DNA of 64,000 bases, taken from positions 29,731-93,730 of the forward strand of contig JACRAM010000006.1 of the NCBI GenBank assembly GCA_016213405.1. Reading direction: 5' to 3'. The DNA comes from Bacteroidota bacterium. Its GTDB lineage: Bacteria; Bacteroidota; Bacteroidia; Palsa-948. The notes beneath the pieces are model-generated. The model was given only the letters and a program-made list of their open reading frames with translations. It did no database searches and was not told the DNA's origin. Below are positions 55,505 through 64,000 of this stretch, piece by piece; the stretch's first letter is position 1, and each line of letters opens with the position of its first letter. A program made the position numbers and the translations under genes.

Positions 55505-56731
55505 TTATTCCACTTCAATATAATCCAAGTCCTTTCCGTATGTTTCTTTCAGTTTGAAAAGGGAGAAGAAGGCGAGAATCATTACCACTGCTCCAACAAT
55601 TATTGCAGATGATAAAATTCCCAGCGATACTGCCATAGCATTCCATGCCAGCGTCATCACTACCAAAGAACCGCGCACAAAATTAGGAACGGTGGTGGTG
55701 ACTGTGGAGCGTATGTTTGTGCCGAACTGTTCAGAAGCCACGGTGACGAACACTGCCCAATATCCTTGCGCAAGTCCGAGTATGAAAATGATGAGATAGA
55801 AAAGTCCGGTCGATGCACCGAATGAAGAAAAATATCCTGTGATGGAAAAAGTGAGCGCAATGAGCGCGATTAAAATCGCCATCCTTCTCGACTTCAGCCA
55901 TTGGCTCATGAATCCGGTTATTAAACTTCCGAGCGCTGCGCCAATGTAATGATACATGACCGCTCTGCCCGGATTGATTGCATCGGTAATTCCAAGATAT
56001 TCTCCAAACTCTTTCGAGAAGGTTACCAGTATTCCGATCACGAACCAGATAGGAAGCCCGAGCATGATACAGTAGATGTACTTGAAAAGTTTTTCTCGCG
56101 TGCTGAAGAGGGAAAAGAAATTACCGCGGCTTGCTTTTGATTCTTTCACTTTGTCAAACATTCCTGATTCGCTCACATACACGCGCAATCCTAAAAGAAA
56201 AAGTCCGAGCACTCCGCCTGCCCAATACGCTTCGCGCCATCCCCATTCTGCAACAGCGAAGGCAAGCACCGCGCCCGCAATCCCCACTCCCGATACAATG
56301 CTGGTTCCCCATCCGCGCGTTTCTTTTGTCATCACTTCAGATACGAGCGTGATGCCAATGCCCAGTTCTCCTGCTAATCCAAACCCTGCAACCACCCGAA
56401 GCCAGGCGTATTGTTCAAAGGTGTGCACAAATCCGTTGGCGATGTTGGCGAGCGAGTAGAGGAGTATGGTGAGAAATAATACAGCCAGTCTTCCTTTTTT
56501 ATCACCGAGAATGCCCCAAACGATTCCGCCAAGCAGCATTCCGATCATCTGCATGTTGATGAGAAATATTCCTGAGTTCTTTATCTGCTCTGCAGGAATT
56601 CCGATTTCTTTCAAACTCGGAACGCGCACAATGCTGAACAGGATCAGATCATAAATATCCACGAAGTAGCCGAGCGCGGCAACAATTACAATGATGTTGA
56701 ATGGATTTTTTGTGCCGGATAATCTGGACAT
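55505..56731 (-). CDS. MFS transporter
   Basis: 12-TM protein with the MFS loop motif ...GILGDKKGRL... between TM2 and TM3. Confidence 0.8.
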   Translation of the reverse strand: MSRLSGTKNPFNIIVIVAALGYFVDIYDLILFSIVRVPSLKEIGIPAEQIKNSGIFLINMQMIGMLLGGIVWGILGDKKGRLAVLFLTILLYSLANIANGFVHTFEQYAWLRVVAGFGLAGELGIGITLVSEVMTKETRGWGTSIVSGVGIAGAVLAFAVAEWGWREAYWAGGVLGLFLLGLRVYVSESGMFDKVKESKASRGNFFSLFSTREKLFKYIYCIMLGLPIWFVIGILVTFSKEFGEYLGITDAINPGRAVMYHYIGAALGSLITGFMSQWLKSRRMAILIALIALTFSITGYFSSFGASTGLFYLIIFILGLAQGYWAVFVTVASEQFGTNIRSTVTTTVPNFVRGSLVVMTLAWNAMAVSLGILSSAIIVGAVVMILAFFSLFKLKETYGKDLDYIEVE

Positions 56732-56976: not shown

Positions 56977-57014
56977 CAACAGGCAAAAGAAAACCCCTGT
57001 TATGCGAACAGGGG
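56977..57014 (-). terminator. Rho-independent terminator closing the phage-derived operon
   Basis: Minus-sense GCCCCUGUUCGCAUAACAGGGG stem-loop followed by UUUUCUUUUG. Confidence 0.65.
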
Positions 57015-57042
57015 CAAACTGGTGGGGTGATTTCGCTAAGAA

Positions 57043-58257
57043 TTACCTCCCCTTTTTCTTTGCTTTTGCGTTGGCTGTTTTGGCAGGGCGTTTTGAGAAT
57101 TTCTCAACCTCTTCCCTTAATGCCTGTATCCTTCGCTGAATAGTTTTCAGGGAGGCGTTTTTCAGGTATGCCCCCAATTCATCATCGTCCAGTTTCTTTG
57201 CAATGTCCATCGCCTCTTGCCTCAAGGAATTTTCAGGAGTGACGATTGCCTTTTCCACTCCCTTTTTATTCTGCACCCATGCTGTGATTTGCTGGCGTAG
57301 CTCCTGTCCGAATTGCTCGGAATATCCTTTGCCTAAATCCTCCCACTTGGGATATTTGCCATTGTCTATTTTGAATTTATAAGGCTTCCATCCTAAATTT
57401 TCAATCACACCATCAATTTGTTTTTCCGTTGCGGTGTCATACCATACTTCCCCTCCAATTTCTTTTTCTTCATTGTTTTCTTCCTGCTTCAACCGATCCA
57501 CGATTGAATACCTTTCCTTGATTTTTTTCATGTCCTCTGCCGAAAGTTGTCTGTTTCCATTTATTAACTCAGAAGCCCAAGAAGAAACTGCATGGCTTTG
57601 TGAATACTCTTTTATTTCCTGAAGCATTTTTTTTATTTCAGGTGTAATGTGTAGCGGGGTTTCTTTGGAATCAATTTTGACAAGAACACCACGAAACCCC
57701 TCCAACAAATCAGAGAAGAAATTTCTCCATCTTATTAAATCAGGCAGGTGTTTCTTCGGGTCAAGGTTTTGTATTTCGCTCTCTGCCTGAAGCCATAAAT
57801 TTTGCGATGCTTCTATATGGCGGTTCATTCCTTCCTCAATAGATTTGGAATACCCTGTATGTTTATCGTACTTTTCATAAAGTTTCTCTCCCAATGCTTC
57901 GTGAATGTGCGCCAGCGTTCCCACATCACCCCAATTGGGATTTTTATTTGAGGCGAAATATTCAATGACCTTTTTCAAATCAGTCATCATTTTTTTGATG
58001 TCGTCTTTGGGATTGCCTTTTACACCCCTAACTAATCTTTCCTTCTCCCATTGATTTGTGGCATCATCAAGCATCATTAGCAAGCCCATCATATCGTTCA
58101 CAAATCTCTGTGCGTGTTTAAAAAGCCCTGTTTCCATTTTAATCGCTTCGTTAAAAATTTCGTTGAACTCTTCATCAGAAAATTTTCTGCCGATGTTTTC
58201 TTCGTGCAGTTGTTTCAAATCAGCGAGTTCATCTGAATAATCGATTGTATTTGTCAT
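57043..58257 (-). CDS. Hypothetical 404-aa helical, Lys/Glu-rich protein (phage-module gene)
   Basis: Long ORF with a basic C-terminal tail (KRPAKTANAKAKKKGR); no recognisable motif; last gene of the module. Confidence 0.45.
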   Translation of the reverse strand: MTNTIDYSDELADLKQLHEENIGRKFSDEEFNEIFNEAIKMETGLFKHAQRFVNDMMGLLMMLDDATNQWEKERLVRGVKGNPKDDIKKMMTDLKKVIEYFASNKNPNWGDVGTLAHIHEALGEKLYEKYDKHTGYSKSIEEGMNRHIEASQNLWLQAESEIQNLDPKKHLPDLIRWRNFFSDLLEGFRGVLVKIDSKETPLHITPEIKKMLQEIKEYSQSHAVSSWASELINGNRQLSAEDMKKIKERYSIVDRLKQEENNEEKEIGGEVWYDTATEKQIDGVIENLGWKPYKFKIDNGKYPKWEDLGKGYSEQFGQELRQQITAWVQNKKGVEKAIVTPENSLRQEAMDIAKKLDDDELGAYLKNASLKTIQRRIQALREEVEKFSKRPAKTANAKAKKKGR

Positions 58258-58314: not shown

Positions 58315-59556
58315 TTAATAAATGGGGTCTTTCGTTTCGCTTTCTTCTGAATTTGGTTCCTCAAAAATCTGCATCTCTCCGCCCTGATTGAATCTTCCGA
58401 ACTGAACCGCCTTGCCTTGCTCCGGTATTTCGATCACTACATCCACATCGTGCTGAAATTCGTTTCTCCCTCTGAAAGCGCCTTGCTTGGTGGTTTGGAA
58501 AATGAATATGAACGACTTGCCCGGATTGTCGGCTCGCAACTTGTCCAGGTCTTTCGGAGTTAATCCAAGTTTGTTGACACTGTCAAGGATGATGAAATCA
58601 TACTTCGATAAATCTTCCGGCAGATAATCGCTCACATATAAATTAGGATTGGCGACTTCTTTATCAGCGAGTTTTTTATGAAGCGTAGCATCTAATTTTT
58701 CTTCCTTCGCCACATAGAGCGTGCCCCCATGATGACGGGCAAGGTATCCGGCAAAGTCCATGCAGAGGTATGACTTGCCTGTTTTGGGTTTGCCAAAAAC
58801 CATCGCTGTAAATCCTTTACTGGGATCTCCAATCAAATCTCTCCACTTTTTTGAAAAACCAAGCGATTCAAATTTCATTTCAGCGAAGTCAACGCTGCTC
58901 ATCAGGTTGTGATCCTGCGGGGGAGCCGGAGTATCTTCTTTGGGTTGCTCATCAATTCCTCTTAACCCAACGGAGCCAACTTTTTCAGGCAGAGATTTAT
59001 CGGGTAGAGGTTCATCGTACTCTTTGGATTTCTTAATCGCCTCCCGAAGCATCAGTATTGTCGCTTCCTTTAATTGAATTCTTACAGAATGCGCTTTCAT
59101 TCCGTTATAGATATGAAGCAGGGATTTCTGAATGAAGCCGATCTCCCTTGCAAAGACGGAGGACTTGCGAATTTTCTTGCTCACAATTGCAGACTGCAAC
59201 TGCTCTATTGTTTTCAAAAGAACAGGTTTTGCAATTTCTTCATCCCTCCAGTCAAGCAGCAGTTTGAAATACTTTACTTCCTCTTTAAACTTGTGATACA
59301 TCTTTCTGTATTTCCGTTTGGCTGGCATTCCATCCACTCCTGCAAGATTTTTATTCGCTTTGATGTATTCACCGAGTTTTTCAAAAGCAAGGTCAGCGAC
59401 CTTTTTAAACTCCGCATCCTGCTTGTAAAACTTCCAATCCTTGCCTTGATCTGTTTTAGTCATTAGAACGAGATGCGTTTTCTTCAGCACCTCAGGCAGA
59501 TTCTCAAAGCCAATGCGTTTGACTTCTGAAAAGTAATTTTTCTTTGTAATTTTCAT
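58315..59556 (-). CDS. RecA-superfamily P-loop ATPase (KaiC/RadA/DnaB-C/Sak4-like core) with unknown about 230-aa N-terminal domain
   Basis: ...LGFSKKWRDLIGDPSKGFTAMVFGKPKTGKSYL (RecA-fold lead-in plus Walker A), DFIILDSV (Walker B), and a short core after it. Confidence 0.6.
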   Translation of the reverse strand: MKITKKNYFSEVKRIGFENLPEVLKKTHLVLMTKTDQGKDWKFYKQDAEFKKVADLAFEKLGEYIKANKNLAGVDGMPAKRKYRKMYHKFKEEVKYFKLLLDWRDEEIAKPVLLKTIEQLQSAIVSKKIRKSSVFAREIGFIQKSLLHIYNGMKAHSVRIQLKEATILMLREAIKKSKEYDEPLPDKSLPEKVGSVGLRGIDEQPKEDTPAPPQDHNLMSSVDFAEMKFESLGFSKKWRDLIGDPSKGFTAMVFGKPKTGKSYLCMDFAGYLARHHGGTLYVAKEEKLDATLHKKLADKEVANPNLYVSDYLPEDLSKYDFIILDSVNKLGLTPKDLDKLRADNPGKSFIFIFQTTKQGAFRGRNEFQHDVDVVIEIPEQGKAVQFGRFNQGGEMQIFEEPNSEESETKDPIY

Positions 59557-60419
59557 CGCTTGACGATTTTTAATTTTTTGAGTTGTGATTGTAAATCCTT
59601 CAGCATCTTTCTGTCCAATTCATAAATGCCTGTGTCCTTCTCATCGTAGTTAAACACCATCACCTCAGTTTTTATTTTGTCGGTGAGTTTTGTAACTGCA
59701 ATTTTCTTAGTAACCGAATAAACATTCCATTTATATTTCTTAATGTATTTTTTCAGGATGGCATTCGGATAACTGCTGAGTAAGAACTTTCCTTTGATTT
59801 TTGTCAGCGCATTCAACAATCGGATGTAATCCGCTTCCATGTATCCTTTGTAATGCCCTTGATGCGTGTTGATGTATGGCGGGTCGCAGTAAAAGAATGC
59901 TTTATTGAAGTCGCGGAGCTTAATAACACGGATTGCATCGTTGCATTCAATCTGCACCTTCTTCAATCGGTCAGCATATATTTTTGAAAAATCGTCCCGC
60001 TTCTTTGCAACCGAATCTTCCTTTGAATCATCCTTTCCGAAGCTCCAAGAAGTCAGCAGTCCTGCAAATCCCTGATTGGCGAGCGTCCAAAACGCCCATG
60101 CTCGTTTCACATCGGAAAACATTTCAGAGTTTTCATATATCACTCTTGCTTTTTTCCAAAGCATCCTGCTGTGCAGAGTGGATTTGATTTCTTTTTCCAG
60201 TTCTTTGAACTTTGTCTGCACCACTTTGAAAAATATCATCACTTCTCCGTTCGTGTCGTTGATGACTTCAACATTGGATGGAGGTTTTGCAAAGAACAAT
60301 GCGCCTCCTCCGAAAAATGGTTCGCAGTACAAAACGTGCTGTGGAATTAAAGCCAGCAAACGCTTCACAAGCGTTTGTTTCCCTCCGTAATATGTAATCG
60401 GTGTTTTCATAGAAGCCAA
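59553..60419 (-). CDS. dam: DNA adenine methyltransferase (Dam / D12 class, alpha group)
   Basis: KTPITYYGGKQTLVKRL..., CEPFFGGGALFF (motif I), FYCDPPY (motif IV DPPY). Confidence 0.85.
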   Translation of the reverse strand: MASMKTPITYYGGKQTLVKRLLALIPQHVLYCEPFFGGGALFFAKPPSNVEVINDTNGEVMIFFKVVQTKFKELEKEIKSTLHSRMLWKKARVIYENSEMFSDVKRAWAFWTLANQGFAGLLTSWSFGKDDSKEDSVAKKRDDFSKIYADRLKKVQIECNDAIRVIKLRDFNKAFFYCDPPYINTHQGHYKGYMEADYIRLLNALTKIKGKFLLSSYPNAILKKYIKKYKWNVYSVTKKIAVTKLTDKIKTEVMVFNYDEKDTGIYELDRKMLKDLQSQLKKLKIVKR

Positions 60420-60431
60420 AGCCCCTCCTAA

Positions 60432-60448
60432 TCCTCCCCGAAGGGGAG
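60432..60448. repeat. Perfect GAA-triloop hairpin CCTCCCCGAAGGGGAGG between the two methylase genes
   Basis: cctccccgaaggggagg read directly; same CCC-GAA-GGG core as the hairpins at 47.6 kb. Confidence 0.8.
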
Positions 60449-60453
60449 GACTT

Positions 60454-61971
60454 TCAGGCTGCTTGTTTTAGTTTGATATTATTTTTCATTGTTTCATCAA
60501 GATTTTTTCGTGCGATGTTGCAATATTCTTTTTTGCCGTCTATGCCGATAAAATTCCTACCGAGTTCTATGGCGCGAACGCCAGTCGTTCCTGTTCCACA
60601 AAAAGGGTCAAGGATGATTCCACCTTCGGGACAACCGGCAAGGATGGGTTTTGTAATCAGTTCAGTATTGAAGGTTGCATAGTGTTTGTCAGCACCACGC
60701 TTGGTGGAGATCACCCAAAAGTCCGTTATATCACCTGGATTCTTTCCTTTGGGATTAAGTTTGACTGTTGTTTGTTTCCCGCCACCTTTTTTTCCTTTGC
60801 CAAAGGGTCCCTTAGTATTTTTTGAATCCCCTCCGTAAGCAGTCATTCCATATTGCACTCTGTCATACGAAGATGCTTTGTAGGGATCCCGAACCGCATC
60901 CAAGTCAAAATAATAATCGGGATTTTTTGTAAGAAATAAAATATGTTCGTGTTTTTTGGAAAATCGGTCACGAACGCTTTCAGGAAGAGAATTCGGTTTC
61001 GCCCAAATGATATCGTTCCGCACAATCCATCCCCGCTCCACGCATCCACAGGCGAAACGATGCGGAATCAGGGTCAAACACTTTGTACGGAGATTATTTG
61101 CCTTGTCGTTATTCGCATCCTTCGGAACAATTTTCCTTACCTGTACTTTAATGAGCGTTTGGGCATTATCGTAAGGACTCTTTCCGCTTCCGTTCCCACT
61201 TCCGAAATAACTGTCGCCAAGGTTCACCCAAACCGTGCCTTCAGGTTTCAATACGCGGTAAATCTCATCCATCAGCAAGAGCATATTTTCGAGATACTGC
61301 ATATAGGTTTTTTCTAACCCCCACTGCCCTTTGAATCCATAGTCGCGGAGTTGCCAGTAGGGAGGGGAAGTGATCACGCAGTCAACACTCTCATCGGGAA
61401 ATGTTTTTAATACTTTCAGGGAATCTCCTTCAATAATAGTATTGGCGATCTTTTCAATTTCTTTGCTGGGAGGAGTTTTTTTCTTGACTCCCATCAAACC
61501 TTCATTCGAGAAAGAGAAAAAAGAATCTTTTGTTATTATCAGGTGGTCAAGAACAATAATATCCATTGAAGCTGCTGCTGTTTTAATTTTACTGGTAAGC
61601 ATTTTATCTAAATCGCTTGGCTTGATAGTCCCACTTGGATGATTGTGGGCGAGAATAATTGAAACAGAACCGCTTTTTAGCGCGGTGCCAAGAACCAAGC
61701 GGATATCAACTGGCGCGGAAGTCATCGTTCCTTTAGAATGCTTGTAGTATCCGGTGATTTTATTCGCCTGATCGAGATAAAGGACAAAAAACTGCTCCTG
61801 TAGCTCCAGTTCGCCCTTTGGAAAAAGGTTACGAACGAAATCAGCCACTTGCTGTGGATTGGTAACCGCCCCTCCGAAGATTTTTTTATCGGATCGGTGG
61901 TAGCTGATTTTGATTTCAGGTACCACCATATCCGCCACTTCACCGAGAACGATTTCTGCAACTGCCGTCAT
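60454..61971 (-). CDS. Fusion protein: N-terminal RadC-like JAB/MPN domain + C-terminal beta-class N6/N4 DNA methyltransferase
   Basis: ILAHNHPSG (JAMM-like HxHPSG of RadC/DUF2466) at about aa 95-105. Then DCVITSPPYW (motif IV, SPPY) and later DPFCGTGTTG (motif I), the order typical of beta-class N6_N4_MTases. Confidence 0.75.
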   Translation of the reverse strand: MTAVAEIVLGEVADMVVPEIKISYHRSDKKIFGGAVTNPQQVADFVRNLFPKGELELQEQFFVLYLDQANKITGYYKHSKGTMTSAPVDIRLVLGTALKSGSVSIILAHNHPSGTIKPSDLDKMLTSKIKTAAASMDIIVLDHLIITKDSFFSFSNEGLMGVKKKTPPSKEIEKIANTIIEGDSLKVLKTFPDESVDCVITSPPYWQLRDYGFKGQWGLEKTYMQYLENMLLLMDEIYRVLKPEGTVWVNLGDSYFGSGNGSGKSPYDNAQTLIKVQVRKIVPKDANNDKANNLRTKCLTLIPHRFACGCVERGWIVRNDIIWAKPNSLPESVRDRFSKKHEHILFLTKNPDYYFDLDAVRDPYKASSYDRVQYGMTAYGGDSKNTKGPFGKGKKGGGKQTTVKLNPKGKNPGDITDFWVISTKRGADKHYATFNTELITKPILAGCPEGGIILDPFCGTGTTGVRAIELGRNFIGIDGKKEYCNIARKNLDETMKNNIKLKQAA

Positions 61972-62198
61972 TTTGATTTTGGGTTTAGTGATTTGTTGCC
62001 GGGTTGTTTTTCGTATCCCTCGTTGCAGAAAGAGTGAGCGATTGCTTCACCGATGAGTGCACCGATGAATCCGCCTACCATTACATAGGGCATTACTTCC
62101 TTCTCCTTACTCTTTGCGTAATAAAATCCTGTGAGGGATGATATCAGCGTAAAATAGGAAACAATCGCTTTTTCTTTTAATGAAACCTTAGTCGTCAT
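61968..62198 (-). CDS. Small membrane protein (2 hydrophobic segments)
   Basis: 76 aa, translationally coupled (ATGA overlap) on both sides. Confidence 0.4.
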   Translation of the reverse strand: MTTKVSLKEKAIVSYFTLISSLTGFYYAKSKEKEVMPYVMVGGFIGALIGEAIAHSFCNEGYEKQPGNKSLNPKSK

Positions 62199-62848
62199 TT
62201 TTGCAATAATAATGTTGCTGTAGCTCCTGATAAAATCAATATCCCAGCGGAGAGGATTTTTGTTTTCAGGTTAGACCTGTGGATTTTCTTATCCGCAAGT
62301 TTCAGCTTCTCCGTAAGTTCGCTTTGCTGTGCAAGGGAAGAATCTGCTACCTGCCTAAGCATCGAAAAGCTATTTTCACAAACCGCTACCAGCGAGTCCT
62401 TGTTCTGAATGACGCATTTCAGGTCAGCGATTTCATTGTCGCATAAACTATCTCGCATATTAGTTTCAGAAATAAACTGCATAACCTGCGTTTTCAGGGA
62501 ATCGCAATTGGTAATGATATCGCTGGTATCCTTCAGGATTTTACTTTCTGAAATAAGTAGCTGTATTTTCCCTTGCAGGAAATTCACTTTTTGGGTGGAC
62601 TGCGTGAGGGCAACTTCTGTATTCTGAATCTGATTTACCAGCGCATTATTCTTTACCACCCAGTATTGAATCTGATTTTTGTAGTTCTCCTCAATGTTGC
62701 TGACCTGTACTTTAAGTTCCTTGACAACATTTTTTGATTCCCTGATTTCTGTTTTGAATCCTTCCATTGAATTAAACAGGAGGTAAGTTGAAATTGCCGA
62801 TAGCAAGCTGAATAAAATGGTTATGATGATTGTCTTTTTCATTTTCAT
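62195..62848 (-). CDS. Membrane-anchored coiled-coil protein (i-spanin-like topology)
   Basis: N-terminal TM/signal (IIITILFSLLSAISTYLLF), a long heptad-rich middle, C-terminal hydrophobic segment. Confidence 0.45.
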   Translation of the reverse strand: MKMKKTIIITILFSLLSAISTYLLFNSMEGFKTEIRESKNVVKELKVQVSNIEENYKNQIQYWVVKNNALVNQIQNTEVALTQSTQKVNFLQGKIQLLISESKILKDTSDIITNCDSLKTQVMQFISETNMRDSLCDNEIADLKCVIQNKDSLVAVCENSFSMLRQVADSSLAQQSELTEKLKLADKKIHRSNLKTKILSAGILILSGATATLLLQK

Positions 62849-63090
62849 GGTTGTTCGTTTTTAGTTTCGTTAGTGTTTGTTTTTGCTTTTTTCTCTATTG
62901 AATAACCGAAACATCCCGCTCCGATGATGCTGACGAAAGAGTAAAACATATACTCAGGTACTGCGATTCCAAAAAACTGCTGTCCAATCCAACTTATGAG
63001 CGTTACCACTACAAAAACAAGCGTTACTAATTCCCGCAGGTTGTAACTGCCGTCTTTGTCTTTCAGTATTTGTTTTCCAAATTCATTCAT
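62845..63090 (-). CDS. Holin-like small membrane protein
   Basis: 81 aa, two TM helices, a charged C-terminal tail (EKKAKTNTNETKNEQP); located next to the amidase. Confidence 0.45.
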   Translation of the reverse strand: MNEFGKQILKDKDGSYNLRELVTLVFVVVTLISWIGQQFFGIAVPEYMFYSFVSIIGAGCFGYSIEKKAKTNTNETKNEQP

Positions 63091-63751
63091 TGGTGTCGTA
63101 GTTTATGTATCCGATTAATCCCAGTCCGAGCGTGAGTGTTCCTATTACGATTCTTTTAATTGATTCCCTCCGCATCGCACGGAAGTCAAGCAGCGTATAG
63201 GTGAATCGGTTTCCATACAAACTGCTGTGGTTGTCGCACATCGACATGAACTCATTAAAATCACTTGCATTCTGAAAGACCTGGCATCCTGCGGAAAATT
63301 TATCAATGACTTTTGTTTTCCCTTTTGCCATCGCCCTGTGAATGTTGATTCCAAAAATTCCTGTGTCCTTTCTTCCATTGAAAAAATCAAGCCTCGCATT
63401 TCGGTCGTAGTCCCGCATAATGGTCACAGGAGCCATCTGCACAAGGGCTTTGTATTGCCCGAGGTGCATTCCGATTTTGTAGGCATTTACATATTGCCCT
63501 TGTGCGAGGATGGCTGTGCCCTGCGGTTGCATCGGGTTCTTCAGCCAGTAAGTTCCGGGATCGGTCGTTCCTTTGAAAATGTGATAGTTCCATTTTAATG
63601 GTTTTGCTTTGTAGAAAACGTGTATCTCATCATCAAAGCGGTTAGGCACAACGCTACGTGTGCGGATTCCCACGATGTTCAGTTCATAAGGGCGTGTGTT
63701 CAGCACAAAGCCTTTGTCGCGGAGAATGGATTTTACTCTCGGAAGTATCAT
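63083..63751 (-). CDS. YkuD/L,D-transpeptidase-fold-like protein with C-terminal TM anchor (putative peptidoglycan-active enzyme); start at the internal Met overlapping the amidase stop
   Basis: INIHRAMAKGKTKVIDKFSAGCQVF matches H-x(17)-S-x-G-C of the YkuD catalytic pair. C-terminal IVIGTLTLGLGLIGYI. ATGA overlap with the upstream gene if started at 63751 (MILPRV...). Confidence 0.4.
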   Translation of the reverse strand: MILPRVKSILRDKGFVLNTRPYELNIVGIRTRSVVPNRFDDEIHVFYKAKPLKWNYHIFKGTTDPGTYWLKNPMQPQGTAILAQGQYVNAYKIGMHLGQYKALVQMAPVTIMRDYDRNARLDFFNGRKDTGIFGINIHRAMAKGKTKVIDKFSAGCQVFQNASDFNEFMSMCDNHSSLYGNRFTYTLLDFRAMRRESIKRIVIGTLTLGLGLIGYINYDTNE

Positions 63752-64000
63752 GCTGCCTGTTTGAAATCGGGTTTGTAGTTTTTGAGCCACTCTCTCACAT
63801 CAAAGCTTGGACAGGCTTTATGCACGCCCGGAAAATCCCTGTGTCCGAGAAACTTTGCCTTCGGATATTTTTCTCCGAGTTCCATCAGCTTGTTAAACAT
63901 GGAGTGAATCTGTCTTTCAGATCGGTTATCCATTGGATTGCCTTCTTTGTCAACTCCTCCGATGTAGGAGATATGAATGCACTCCTGATTATGACCGTAT
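63748..64000 (-). CDS. N-acetylmuramoyl-L-alanine amidase (Amidase_2/PGRP-type endolysin), 5' part beyond window end
   Basis: ...CIHISYIGG...KFLGHRDFPGVHKACPSFD... (conserved Amidase_2 His / Cys-Pro region). The frame stays open to position 64000. Confidence 0.65.
   Translation of the reverse strand, partial: YGHNQECIHISYIGGVDKEGNPMDNRSERQIHSMFNKLMELGEKYPKAKFLGHRDFPGVHKACPSFDVREWLKNYKPDFKQAA

Follow-up and report, generated by a model that had tools for sequence, protein, structure and literature searches.

The DNA analysed here, called the window below, is a stretch of 64,000 nucleotides (nt) from a Bacteroidota bacterium (assembly GCA_016213405.1, contig JACRAM010000006.1, positions 29,731 to 93,730 of the forward strand). 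It carries a gene for a protein of 505 amino acids (aa) in which a RadC-type JAB domain is fused to a beta-class DNA methyltransferase (MTase). This gene stands near the end of an inserted element and is followed by genes for a Dam-like MTase, an ATPase, and a helical protein designated X404; these four genes are referred to here as the cassette (Table 1). Over aa 37 to 159, the RadC half of the fusion matched all 121 positions of the PF04002 model (E 9e-36; 122.9 bits, cutoff 22.1), and the MTase half matched PF01555 (N6_N4_Mtase) over aa 196 to 488 (E 3e-54; 184.6 bits against a cutoff of 26.7). PHROGs, NCBIfam, and PADLOC concurred with Pfam on the domains: phrog_10276 was matched by the RadC domain at 1e-29, and PADLOC MTase_II was matched by the MTase domain at 1e-84. 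An initial annotation, made from the letters alone, had recognized the N-terminal domain by its HNHPSG signature (aa 109 to 114, nt 61630 to 61647). The profile search bore this out, placing the N-terminal 150 aa in PF04002 and not in a non-JAB family, and the JAMM site is intact (E59, H109, H111, S119, and D122, with H109-N-H111 as the HNH). The RadC half also matched the solved RadC domain 2QLC by sequence (E 1.9e-18), with the JAMM residues aligned. The PF04002 region is preceded by a clade-specific N-terminal extension (aa 1 to 36, EIVLG..VPEIKISY). In the MTase half, SPPY (motif IV, aa 202 to 205, nt 61357 to 61368) lies N-terminal to FCGTGTTG (motif I, aa 457 to 464, nt 60580 to 60603). 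This is the permuted beta-class order that had been read from the sequence, and the motif positions, PF01555, and an alignment of homologues all agree with it.

The AlphaFold2 model of the fusion had an overall predicted local distance difference test (pLDDT) score of 77.9, with two confident domains joined by a low-confidence linker (aa 160 to 169, about 52). Pfam and the model together place the domain boundaries as given in Table 1. The RadC domain was modelled with pLDDT above 90, and Foldseek superposed it on 2QLC with a template modelling (TM) score of 0.90 and a root mean square deviation of 2.2 Å over 125 columns. The MTase half of the model matched M.BceJIV, MboIIA, RsrI, CcrM, the rotifer N4CMT, and M.PvuII. 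The N4-cytosine enzymes (PvuII and the rotifer N4CMT) and the N6-adenine enzymes matched this half about equally, by both sequence and fold. N4-cytosine MTases are usually recognised by a serine as the first residue of motif IV. Because motif IV of the fusion begins with serine, its MTase is probably specific for N4-cytosine rather than N6-adenine. The class had been given as N6-adenine or N4-cytosine; beta-class membership stands, and SPPY shifts the choice toward cytosine.

Table 1. Features of the cassette and the adjoining part of the element, in window positions.
Feature	Position	Strand	Basis
RadC::beta-class DNA MTase fusion gene, 505 aa, ATG start	60454..61971	-	Open reading frame (ORF), Pfam, 20-homologue alignment, AlphaFold2/fold matches
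RadC-type JAB domain, aa 1-159	61495..61971	-	PF04002, 2QLC sequence and fold matches
Interdomain linker, aa 160-175, just past the natural RadC C-terminus SNEGLMG	61447..61494	-	pLDDT drop, alignment variability
Beta-class DNA MTase domain, aa 176-500	60472..61446	-	PF01555, PADLOC MTase_II, Foldseek
Intercistronic RNA hairpin GUCCUCCCC-UUCG-GGGAGGAU	60430..60452	-	Between fusion stop codon and Dam start; centroid structure
D12-class (alpha) Dam-like N6-adenine DNA MTase	59553..60419	-	PF02086, TIGR00571, phrog_56
Backbone ATPase, N-terminal helical domain and C-terminal RecA-fold NTPase	58315..59556	-	phrog_6891, AlphaFold2/Foldseek
X404, last element gene, 404 aa, helical, lysine-rich tail	57043..58257	-	Position conserved in relatives
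Terminator-like hairpin and T-run, approximate element end	56993..57015	-	Consensus scan
76-aa and 81-aa small hydrophobic proteins, upstream, co-oriented	within 61968..64000	-	ORFs
p215	62195-62848	-	ORF, local HMM survey
p220	63083-63790	-	phrog_3000/endolysin-like
Amidase_2 lysin, 3' part	63748 to beyond 64000	-	Amidase_2/phrog_822 in relatives

A homologue search covering 5.8 billion clustered proteins returned about 22 clusters (90% identity) of full-length RadC-MTase proteins, which share 57 to 97% identity with the query and derive from independent metagenomes and from metagenome-assembled genomes (MAGs) of Bacteroidota. In an alignment of 20 full-length fusion homologues, reaching down to 57% identity, the five JAMM-site residues were invariant, as was the RadC "DH" pair (D142 and H143). 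Motifs IV and I were present in the C-terminal domain throughout: S202-P-P was invariant, Y205 was found in 19 of the 20, and the positions of motif I (F457-C-G-x-G..T463-G464) were invariant apart from the variable one. The catalytic motifs are thus invariant or nearly so down to 57% identity, and both activities are therefore under selection. The linker varies across the alignment, and the two domains join without a break. That the fusion arose from misassembly or a frameshift was rejected, given the roughly 22 independent clusters, the continuous conserved junction, and the invariant catalytic residues.

The RadC::beta-MTase form is rare, in line with the uncommon architecture suggested at the outset, and no description of a two-domain RadC::beta-class methylase was found in a literature search. 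Among deposited phage genomes (INPHARED, tblastn), 452 records had matches, none covering at least 80% of the query; in the 30 records listed, the MTase part alone aligned. The MTase domain is 38 to 45% identical to annotated phage MTases. Scans of IMG/VR with the single protein and with the alignment gave 12 and 182 MTase-related loci, respectively, and no RadC fusion was present among the 80 closest, which were inspected. In one of the IMG/VR loci (L020), an apparent N-terminal extension of the MTase proved to be a separate upstream gene with a VRR-NUC-like motif. This gene (L020:9692-10138, on a phage contig) lies directly 5' of a related beta-class methylase and resembles a VRR-NUC nuclease by its motif (..DLFV..EIK..). 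A sister group of the fusion's beta-class methylase (P0030 to P0037 and P0041) has no RadC at the N-terminus but a conserved extension of about 150 aa at the C-terminus (...LIEWISVS..RKKGIATKAML..), without a Pfam match, and four proteins of about 604 to 624 aa (P0086 to P0088 and P0107) are fusions of Dam with a beta-class MTase.

The gene directly downstream had been called a canonical alpha-class Dam with DPPY, and the profile matches concur (PF02086, 1e-24; TIGR00571, 5e-29; phrog_56, 4.5e-66). Its FFGGG, close to the N-terminus, precedes DPPY, the order of the alpha class. Since homologues begin MKTPITYYGGKQ, the true Dam start is probably the ATG at 60410. The UUCG hairpin ahead of it has a centroid structure of -17.2 kcal/mol, and the whole 71-nt stretch scored z = -2.46 against shuffles; an AGGAGG-like stretch lies between the hairpin and the Dam start. 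The hairpin could be a putative RNA stabiliser or translational coupling element.

The ATPase gene overlaps the Dam stop by 4 nt and encodes a RadA/Sms/DnaB-like protein with the Walker A motif GKPKTGKS. It matched phrog_6891 (3e-20) and no Pfam family above threshold, with weak matches to AAA_24/AAA_25, KaiC, and Sms. In its AlphaFold2 model (pLDDT 75), a confident helical domain at the N-terminus precedes a C-terminal domain with a RecA fold. Foldseek matched the model best to the Streptococcus pneumoniae RadA/Sms helicase (8rxc, 4.5e-8) and then to DnaB, RecA, Rad51, KaiC, and Twinkle. The family has at least 1394 detected homologues, almost all unannotated, and an uncultured "Bacteroidetes bacterium" MAG at NCBI encodes a protein 100% identical to the ATPase of the window. 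The "SMS/RadA domain" reported by Iyer et al. 2017 (PMC5512222) in Bacteroidetes polyvalent proteins is probably this ATPase. X404 had no match in Pfam, PHROGs, NCBIfam, or PADLOC and has no assignable fold; its homologues stand at the same position in three related loci (L002, L004, and L006). Pfam, NCBIfam, PHROGs, and PADLOC found no restriction endonuclease family among the four cassette genes. The earlier description of two tandem orphan MTases with no visible cognate endonuclease thus holds: the fusion and Dam lie in a mobile element, and no cognate endonuclease is recognisable among their neighbours.

From its start to about 56.8 kb, the window is ordinary Bacteroidota chromosome, with host genes for valyl-tRNA synthetase, biotin carboxylase, a T9SS-sorted PKD protein, an aminotransferase, and a major facilitator superfamily (MFS) transporter; the MFS transporter gene at 55505 to 56731 is the first past the element end. 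From about 57.0 kb onward, every gene in the window lies on the minus strand and is part of the element. Four long contigs with fusion homologues share an identical co-oriented gene order of about 15 unannotated genes, an Amidase_2 lysin, p220, a small protein, p215, a small protein, p168, RadC::MTase, Dam, the ATPase, and a protein of 320 to 400 aa. Beyond the last of these lie unrelated host genes that differ in each contig. One of the four has a large serine recombinase at the cassette end, and the opposite element end carries a helix-turn-helix protein and an ImmA/IrrE-type regulator. The element is a prophage-like integrative element of Bacteroidota, of about 25 kb, with the cassette at its transcriptional end. 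In sister elements, the lysin is swapped for non-homologous peptidoglycan hydrolases (GH108 with a peptidoglycan-binding domain, or a glucosaminidase). In most relatives p168 (168 to 185 aa) lies directly upstream of the fusion or of whatever genes stand in its place (e.g., L002:9498-10004); it is absent from the window, where only the 76-aa hydrophobic ORF (61968 to 62198) precedes the fusion, and the fusion start overlaps this ORF by 4 nt.

A conserved backbone protein, also of 505 aa, served as a marker gene. It occurs in 53 of the GTDB species-representative genomes, almost all of them with a Bacteroidota label, among them that of the cultured Nemorincola caseinilytica JCM 32105 (L126), and it gave no match in an IMG/VR scan. 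A tailed phage was rejected as the identity of the element: among 18 upstream proteins (L004 and L099) there were no capsid, portal, terminase, or tail PHROGs, and the only PHROG matches were to lysins, an ImmA-type regulator, and a trypsin-like protease. The mobile-element location proposed in the initial annotation is borne out by the synteny and the boundary. Its suggestion of an integrative and conjugative element (ICE) is not, as nothing marks the element as one and no families of the type IV secretion system (T4SS) type were noted among the element genes scanned. The family, with about 20 backbone genes, may represent a type of virus or integrative element that has gone unrecognised. Elsewhere in the window, from about 12000 to 38000, the G+C content is low (0.30 to 0.35, against 0.39 to 0.45 in the rest) and the genes are mostly co-oriented on the minus strand. 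Three genes scanned there gave one weak NAD_synthase match and two proteins without a Pfam match; this region may be a horizontally acquired biosynthetic or surface-polysaccharide locus.

Hidden Markov models (HMMs) for the backbone and cassette genes were run over all marker and fusion loci, with Pfam checks on selected loci. The position between p215/p168 and the ATPase proved to be a hypervariable slot. It holds RadC::beta-MTase and Dam in the window and in loci L002 to L006 and L099 to L101; in L103 it holds a beta-class MTase, 69% identical in the MTase part, that lacks RadC and is accompanied by Dam. Dam alone also occurs. In six loci (L125, L127, L128, L134, L137, and L139), Dam and the ATPase form a single ORF of about 676 aa, Pfam-confirmed for L127 (3352 to 5379, minus strand), and such fusions indicate a likely joint action of the two proteins. 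In at least 10 loci plus L135, the slot is occupied by a large LPD36-like gamma-class methylase (NPPF, Eco57I/N6_Mtase) with a Strawberry-notch SNF2 helicase, without RadC. The same DarB-like protein bears an N-terminal RadC in L117, L121, L129, L130, and L147, and also in L153 (P0241, 1738 aa). A C5 cytosine methylase fills the slot in L140 (PF00145, 5e-56), and L110 has a helical domain with a C-terminal RadC. Four unrelated methylase classes thus occur in the slot: beta, Dam, gamma fused to the Strawberry-notch helicase, and C5. Such turnover is the signature of an arms race with host restriction. The ATPase was present in every surveyed locus long enough to cover the region after the slot. 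The DarB-like methylase-helicase was rejected as a replacement for the ATPase, as L153 carries both. Downstream of the ATPase in that locus (L153:7630-13275) are DCD, MazG_C, TIR, LD_cluster2/STALD, HMUDK_hel, ThsB_TIR, and Nmad2 domains, which look like base-hypermodification and/or Thoeris-like defence cargo. The two-methyltransferase cassette of the initial annotation is therefore real, with the refinement that the methylases are cargo in a hypervariable slot beside a conserved ATPase, an apparent hub of the module that had been overlooked.

To survey the partners of RadC, its part of the fusion was searched with phmmer against 1.84 billion representatives, and 46 proteins were found at E <= 1e-30. 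The best 150 matches were scored with local HMMs for architecture. The architecture counts are from this exhaustive representative search; a list of RadC-only homologues was excluded, as its best 120 omitted fusion proteins. Many of the nearest RadC relatives are fusions. At least 16 representatives at 50% identity are RadC::ATPase proteins with the same ATPase family, and these belong to the same element backbone, its slot there being free of methylases. Among the scored representatives, six have RadC with the gamma-MTase-Sno protein and one (P0017) is RadC::beta-MTase. P0021 has the reversed order, with the MTase, a 250-aa linker, and then RadC. In a neighbour-joining tree of RadC cores, all fused forms made up one clade, apart from canonical 232-aa RadC and 145-aa solo JAB proteins. 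Beta- and gamma-fused RadC were interleaved within that clade; the tree has no support values and gives a rough picture. The fusions make up a Rosetta-stone network of RadC-betaMT, RadC-gammaMT-Sno, RadC-ATPase, and Dam-ATPase links. The predicted joining of RadC to a methylase therefore holds, while RadC is not a specific partner of the beta-class methylase, since the same clade is found on the DarB-like protein or the ATPase. In these elements, RadC is an optional add-on.

These results are best explained, with a probability of about 0.5, by a cargo variant of a modular anti-restriction DNA-modification cassette, in which RadC and the methylases are arranged around the ATPase. The beta-class MTase domain would be active, probably making N4-methylcytosine, and together with the adjacent Dam it would methylate the element's own DNA and so allow escape from restriction in the present and the next host. 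RadC and the methylases would be parts of a machine centred on the RadA/DnaB-like RecA-fold ATPase. The methylases would cooperate with this ATPase, perhaps riding on it, in analogy with the methylase-helicase dyad of DarB. The RadC domain is predicted to be a catalytically intact Zn-dependent JAB hydrolase, accessory to the complex, and the covalent fusion would tether it to the DNA-bound methylase/ATPase complex. So tethered, it most likely would act on nucleic acid, as a nuclease or in DNA processing, rather than in the removal of ubiquitin-like tags. We infer both the anti-restriction role and the physical complex with the ATPase, and any particular RadC substrate deserves much less credence than the overall model. 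The domain identities, the conserved catalytic motifs, the conserved synteny with host flanks that differ in every locus, the range of methylases seen in the slot, the lack of a restriction endonuclease family nearby, and the fusion network with its single RadC clade all support this explanation. Iyer and colleagues (Iyer 2011, PMC3239186; Iyer 2017, PMC5512222) had predicted a nucleic-acid-processing role for RadC and had placed it in anti-restriction polyvalent proteins.

Several observations weigh against this explanation. RadC is fused to the ATPase in elements without a slot methylase, so its mechanism does not depend on methylation. RadC is also dispensable, since sister elements commonly carry both methylase types in versions that lack it. 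No solo RadC was found within 10 kb of related phage MTases in 92 IMG/VR loci searched with our own RadC HMM, and the RadC-MTase association is therefore lineage-specific and not general to the MTase clade. The RadC fusion may reflect only co-expression or complex membership. The cassette stands at the end of a long co-directional operon, downstream of lysis-like genes, and the suggested N4-cytosine specificity is read solely from the serine in motif IV. A literature search found no biochemical activity of RadC-family proteins, only the in silico work of Iyer et al. and passing mentions.

The same genes could instead form a prophage-encoded defence or superinfection exclusion system of the restriction-modification (R-M) type, in which the methylases mark resident DNA and RadC, the ATPase, and/or X404 attack unmethylated incoming DNA. 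The fusion would then be an R-M enzyme in a single chain, its nuclease having a new fold. Type IIG/IIC enzymes are likewise built with a nuclease at the N-terminus and an MTase after it. RadC has been inferred to be positionally equivalent to nucleases (Iyer 2011, PMC3239186), the element end is a typical defence-moron site (PMC12458937), and in the relative L153 TIR/ThsB-like genes adjoin the module. However, nuclease and methylase are not strictly coupled here as in Type IIG/IIC-like single chains: RadC and the MTase each occur alone, a RadC-less orthologue of the fusion's MTase exists (L103), neither Pfam nor NCBIfam found a known restriction endonuclease family in the cassette, and no known restriction endonuclease fold is present. 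RadC::ATPase proteins occur in the same backbone without a slot methylase, and RadC therefore needs no protective methylation. The independent occurrence of RadC and the methylases argues against RadC as a methylation-checked restriction nuclease, and also against a strictly methylation-specific role. Four unrelated methylase classes and specificities swap while the ATPase stays constant, which is hard to fit with a cognate nuclease. Among the defence profiles, Dam matches PADLOC PD-Lambda-5_B (2e-23) and the MTase and ATPase have weak mad2 and mad8 matches, but the PADLOC MTase_II matches are far stronger than the defence-specific ones and no complete system was matched. We consider an R-M-type defence quite unlikely. 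Unlikely as well, if somewhat less so, is a bolder form of the machine, in which RadC JAB would be the dedicated catalytic subunit of an unrecognised machine: the ATPase would carry interchangeable methylases along mobile-element DNA and RadC would perform a DNA-end or single-stranded DNA processing or nuclease step. In a sub-variant, RadC would be a new nuclease fold, the R component of a single-chain R-M-like enzyme.

Two further alternatives concern the chemistry of RadC and the purpose of the module. As a metallopeptidase, RadC might cleave the fusion itself to free the methylase, in the manner of the zincin MPTase of polyvalent proteins, or degrade or inactivate host restriction or defence proteins, a role proposed for the ArdC metalloprotease domain, with the methylase as its DNA-targeting part. 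The catalytic JAMM site is intact throughout the alignment, every JAB domain with characterised biochemistry is an isopeptidase or a peptidase (Iyer 2011, PMC3239186; Iyer 2017, PMC5512222), and RadC-ArdC module fusions exist in other elements. A processing peptidase is also common in polyvalent proteins. Nevertheless, RadC-family domains lack the groove for a ubiquitin-like tail, as argued by Iyer et al., and no ubiquitin-like, E1/E2, or Gly-Gly-ended partner was seen in the element. Self-processing is hardly needed by a two-domain protein of 505 aa, and the linker is short and not conserved. A peptidase role is the most doubtful of these proposals. About as improbable as R-M defence is a replication or recombination module without restriction evasion, in which a RadA/DnaB-like helicase would work with RadC in DNA processing and with Dam in replication or packaging control, and RadC::MTase would be an incidental fusion of neighbouring genes. 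The constant gene is indeed the ATPase, which resembles RadA/Sms, DnaB, RecA, and Twinkle and has a weak Sak4-like PHROG match, and RadC::ATPase is the commonest architecture among the nearest RadC relatives. Some phage Dam methylases, e.g., that of P1, serve packaging or replication control, and neighbouring genes overlap by 4 nt, so that fusion by loss of a stop codon is easy. However, the rotation of four unrelated methylase classes, including the established anti-restriction type of DarB, is typical of arms-race cargo and not of housekeeping replication, and the RadC-methylase fusion arose at least three times (with the beta MTase, with the gamma MTase, and in reversed order).

RadC is among the most widespread bacterial and mobile-element domains still without an assigned biochemical function, and the early assignment to DNA repair is disputed, as the title "RadC, a misleading name?" (Attaiech 2008) expresses. 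Its presence in anti-restriction and polyvalent contexts was already known in silico (PMC3239186, PMC5512222), and orphan phage methylases and ParB-methylase fusions are well known. New here is the two-domain RadC::beta-class methylase, and the main value lies in the comparative picture that links RadC to a methylase/RecA-fold-ATPase module. The repeated joining of one RadC clade to unrelated methylase classes and to the ATPase within one element family locates its function in handling or protecting the DNA of mobile elements, and the small two-domain protein offers a compact, mutable handle on that role. The analysis also documents a methylase hot spot with four MTase classes and points to an element family that is widespread in Bacteroidota and has no PHROG match among its structural genes. 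If the bolder machine is real, the fusion network would be the first mechanistic assignment for the RadC family, and the 505-aa RadC::MTase would be the simplest experimental entry to it. If the cassette is a routine orphan methylase pair with a passenger domain, the finding is ordinary.

The closest parallels are the RadC polyvalent proteins and the DarB-like dyad of an LPD36-N6-adenine methylase and a SWI2/SNF2 (Strawberry notch) helicase (PMC5512222), which likewise combine RadC and DNA-modifying enzymes in one mobile-element polypeptide in an anti-restriction context. In sister elements, precisely this DarB-like methylase-helicase dyad is joined to RadC, in the same slot. In contrast to those proteins, the fusion has only two domains, its partner is a small beta-class methylase (PF01555, SPPY), and it contains no helicase, LPD36, MPTase, ArdC-N, or MuF domain. 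It is a polyvalent protein in the minimal sense, with two unrelated effector domains, the lower limit, in one polypeptide of 505 aa; delivery-linked features of such proteins (MuF, vRNAP, ArdC-N, relaxase, and MPTase) were found neither in it nor in its neighbours. RadC polyvalent proteins have been reported only from conjugative elements (Iyer et al. 2017, PMC5512222). Unlike those hosts, the present element has lysis-like genes, and among its scanned genes no T4SS-type families were noted. Canonical RadC/YicR (UPF0758; a helix-hairpin-helix region at the N-terminus, PF20582, and PF04002) has the same JAB fold and the same E..HxH..S..D site. Unlike it, the fusion lacks the PF20582 region, has its own 36-aa extension, and belongs to a separate clade of mobile-element fusions. 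The NCBIfam RadC equivalogs NF000642 and TIGR00608 failed (113.8 bits against 180 and 101 against 133.85, respectively), with only model positions 89 to 212 matched. As judged from these profiles, the domain is a member of the RadC family and not housekeeping RadC.

ParB-methylase fusions, e.g., Bce_0392 of Bacillus cereus, join an N-terminal ParB-like nicking nuclease to a DNA methylase and are common in prophages (PMC5512222). The present protein resembles them in carrying an N-terminal accessory DNA-acting domain on an orphan mobile-element methylase, with RadC in the place of ParB, and the analogy fits a possible DNA-binding or nuclease role for RadC. Unlike these fusions, it has an unrelated N-terminal fold (JAB/deaminase-like versus ParB/Srx) and no ParB domain. 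The orphan phage MTases (T4 and P1 Dam and the beta-class enzymes of mycobacteriophages and haloviruses) are likewise found alone, with no cognate endonuclease. In mobile elements, anti-restriction moron modules of the RadC/ArdB type stand at one end (PMC12458937), as does the cassette, which has no ArdB/KlcA gene with it. What sets the cassette apart from both the orphan phage methylases and the RadC-ArdB modules is the covalent RadC fusion, the tandem second methylase, and the coupling to a RecA-fold ATPase.

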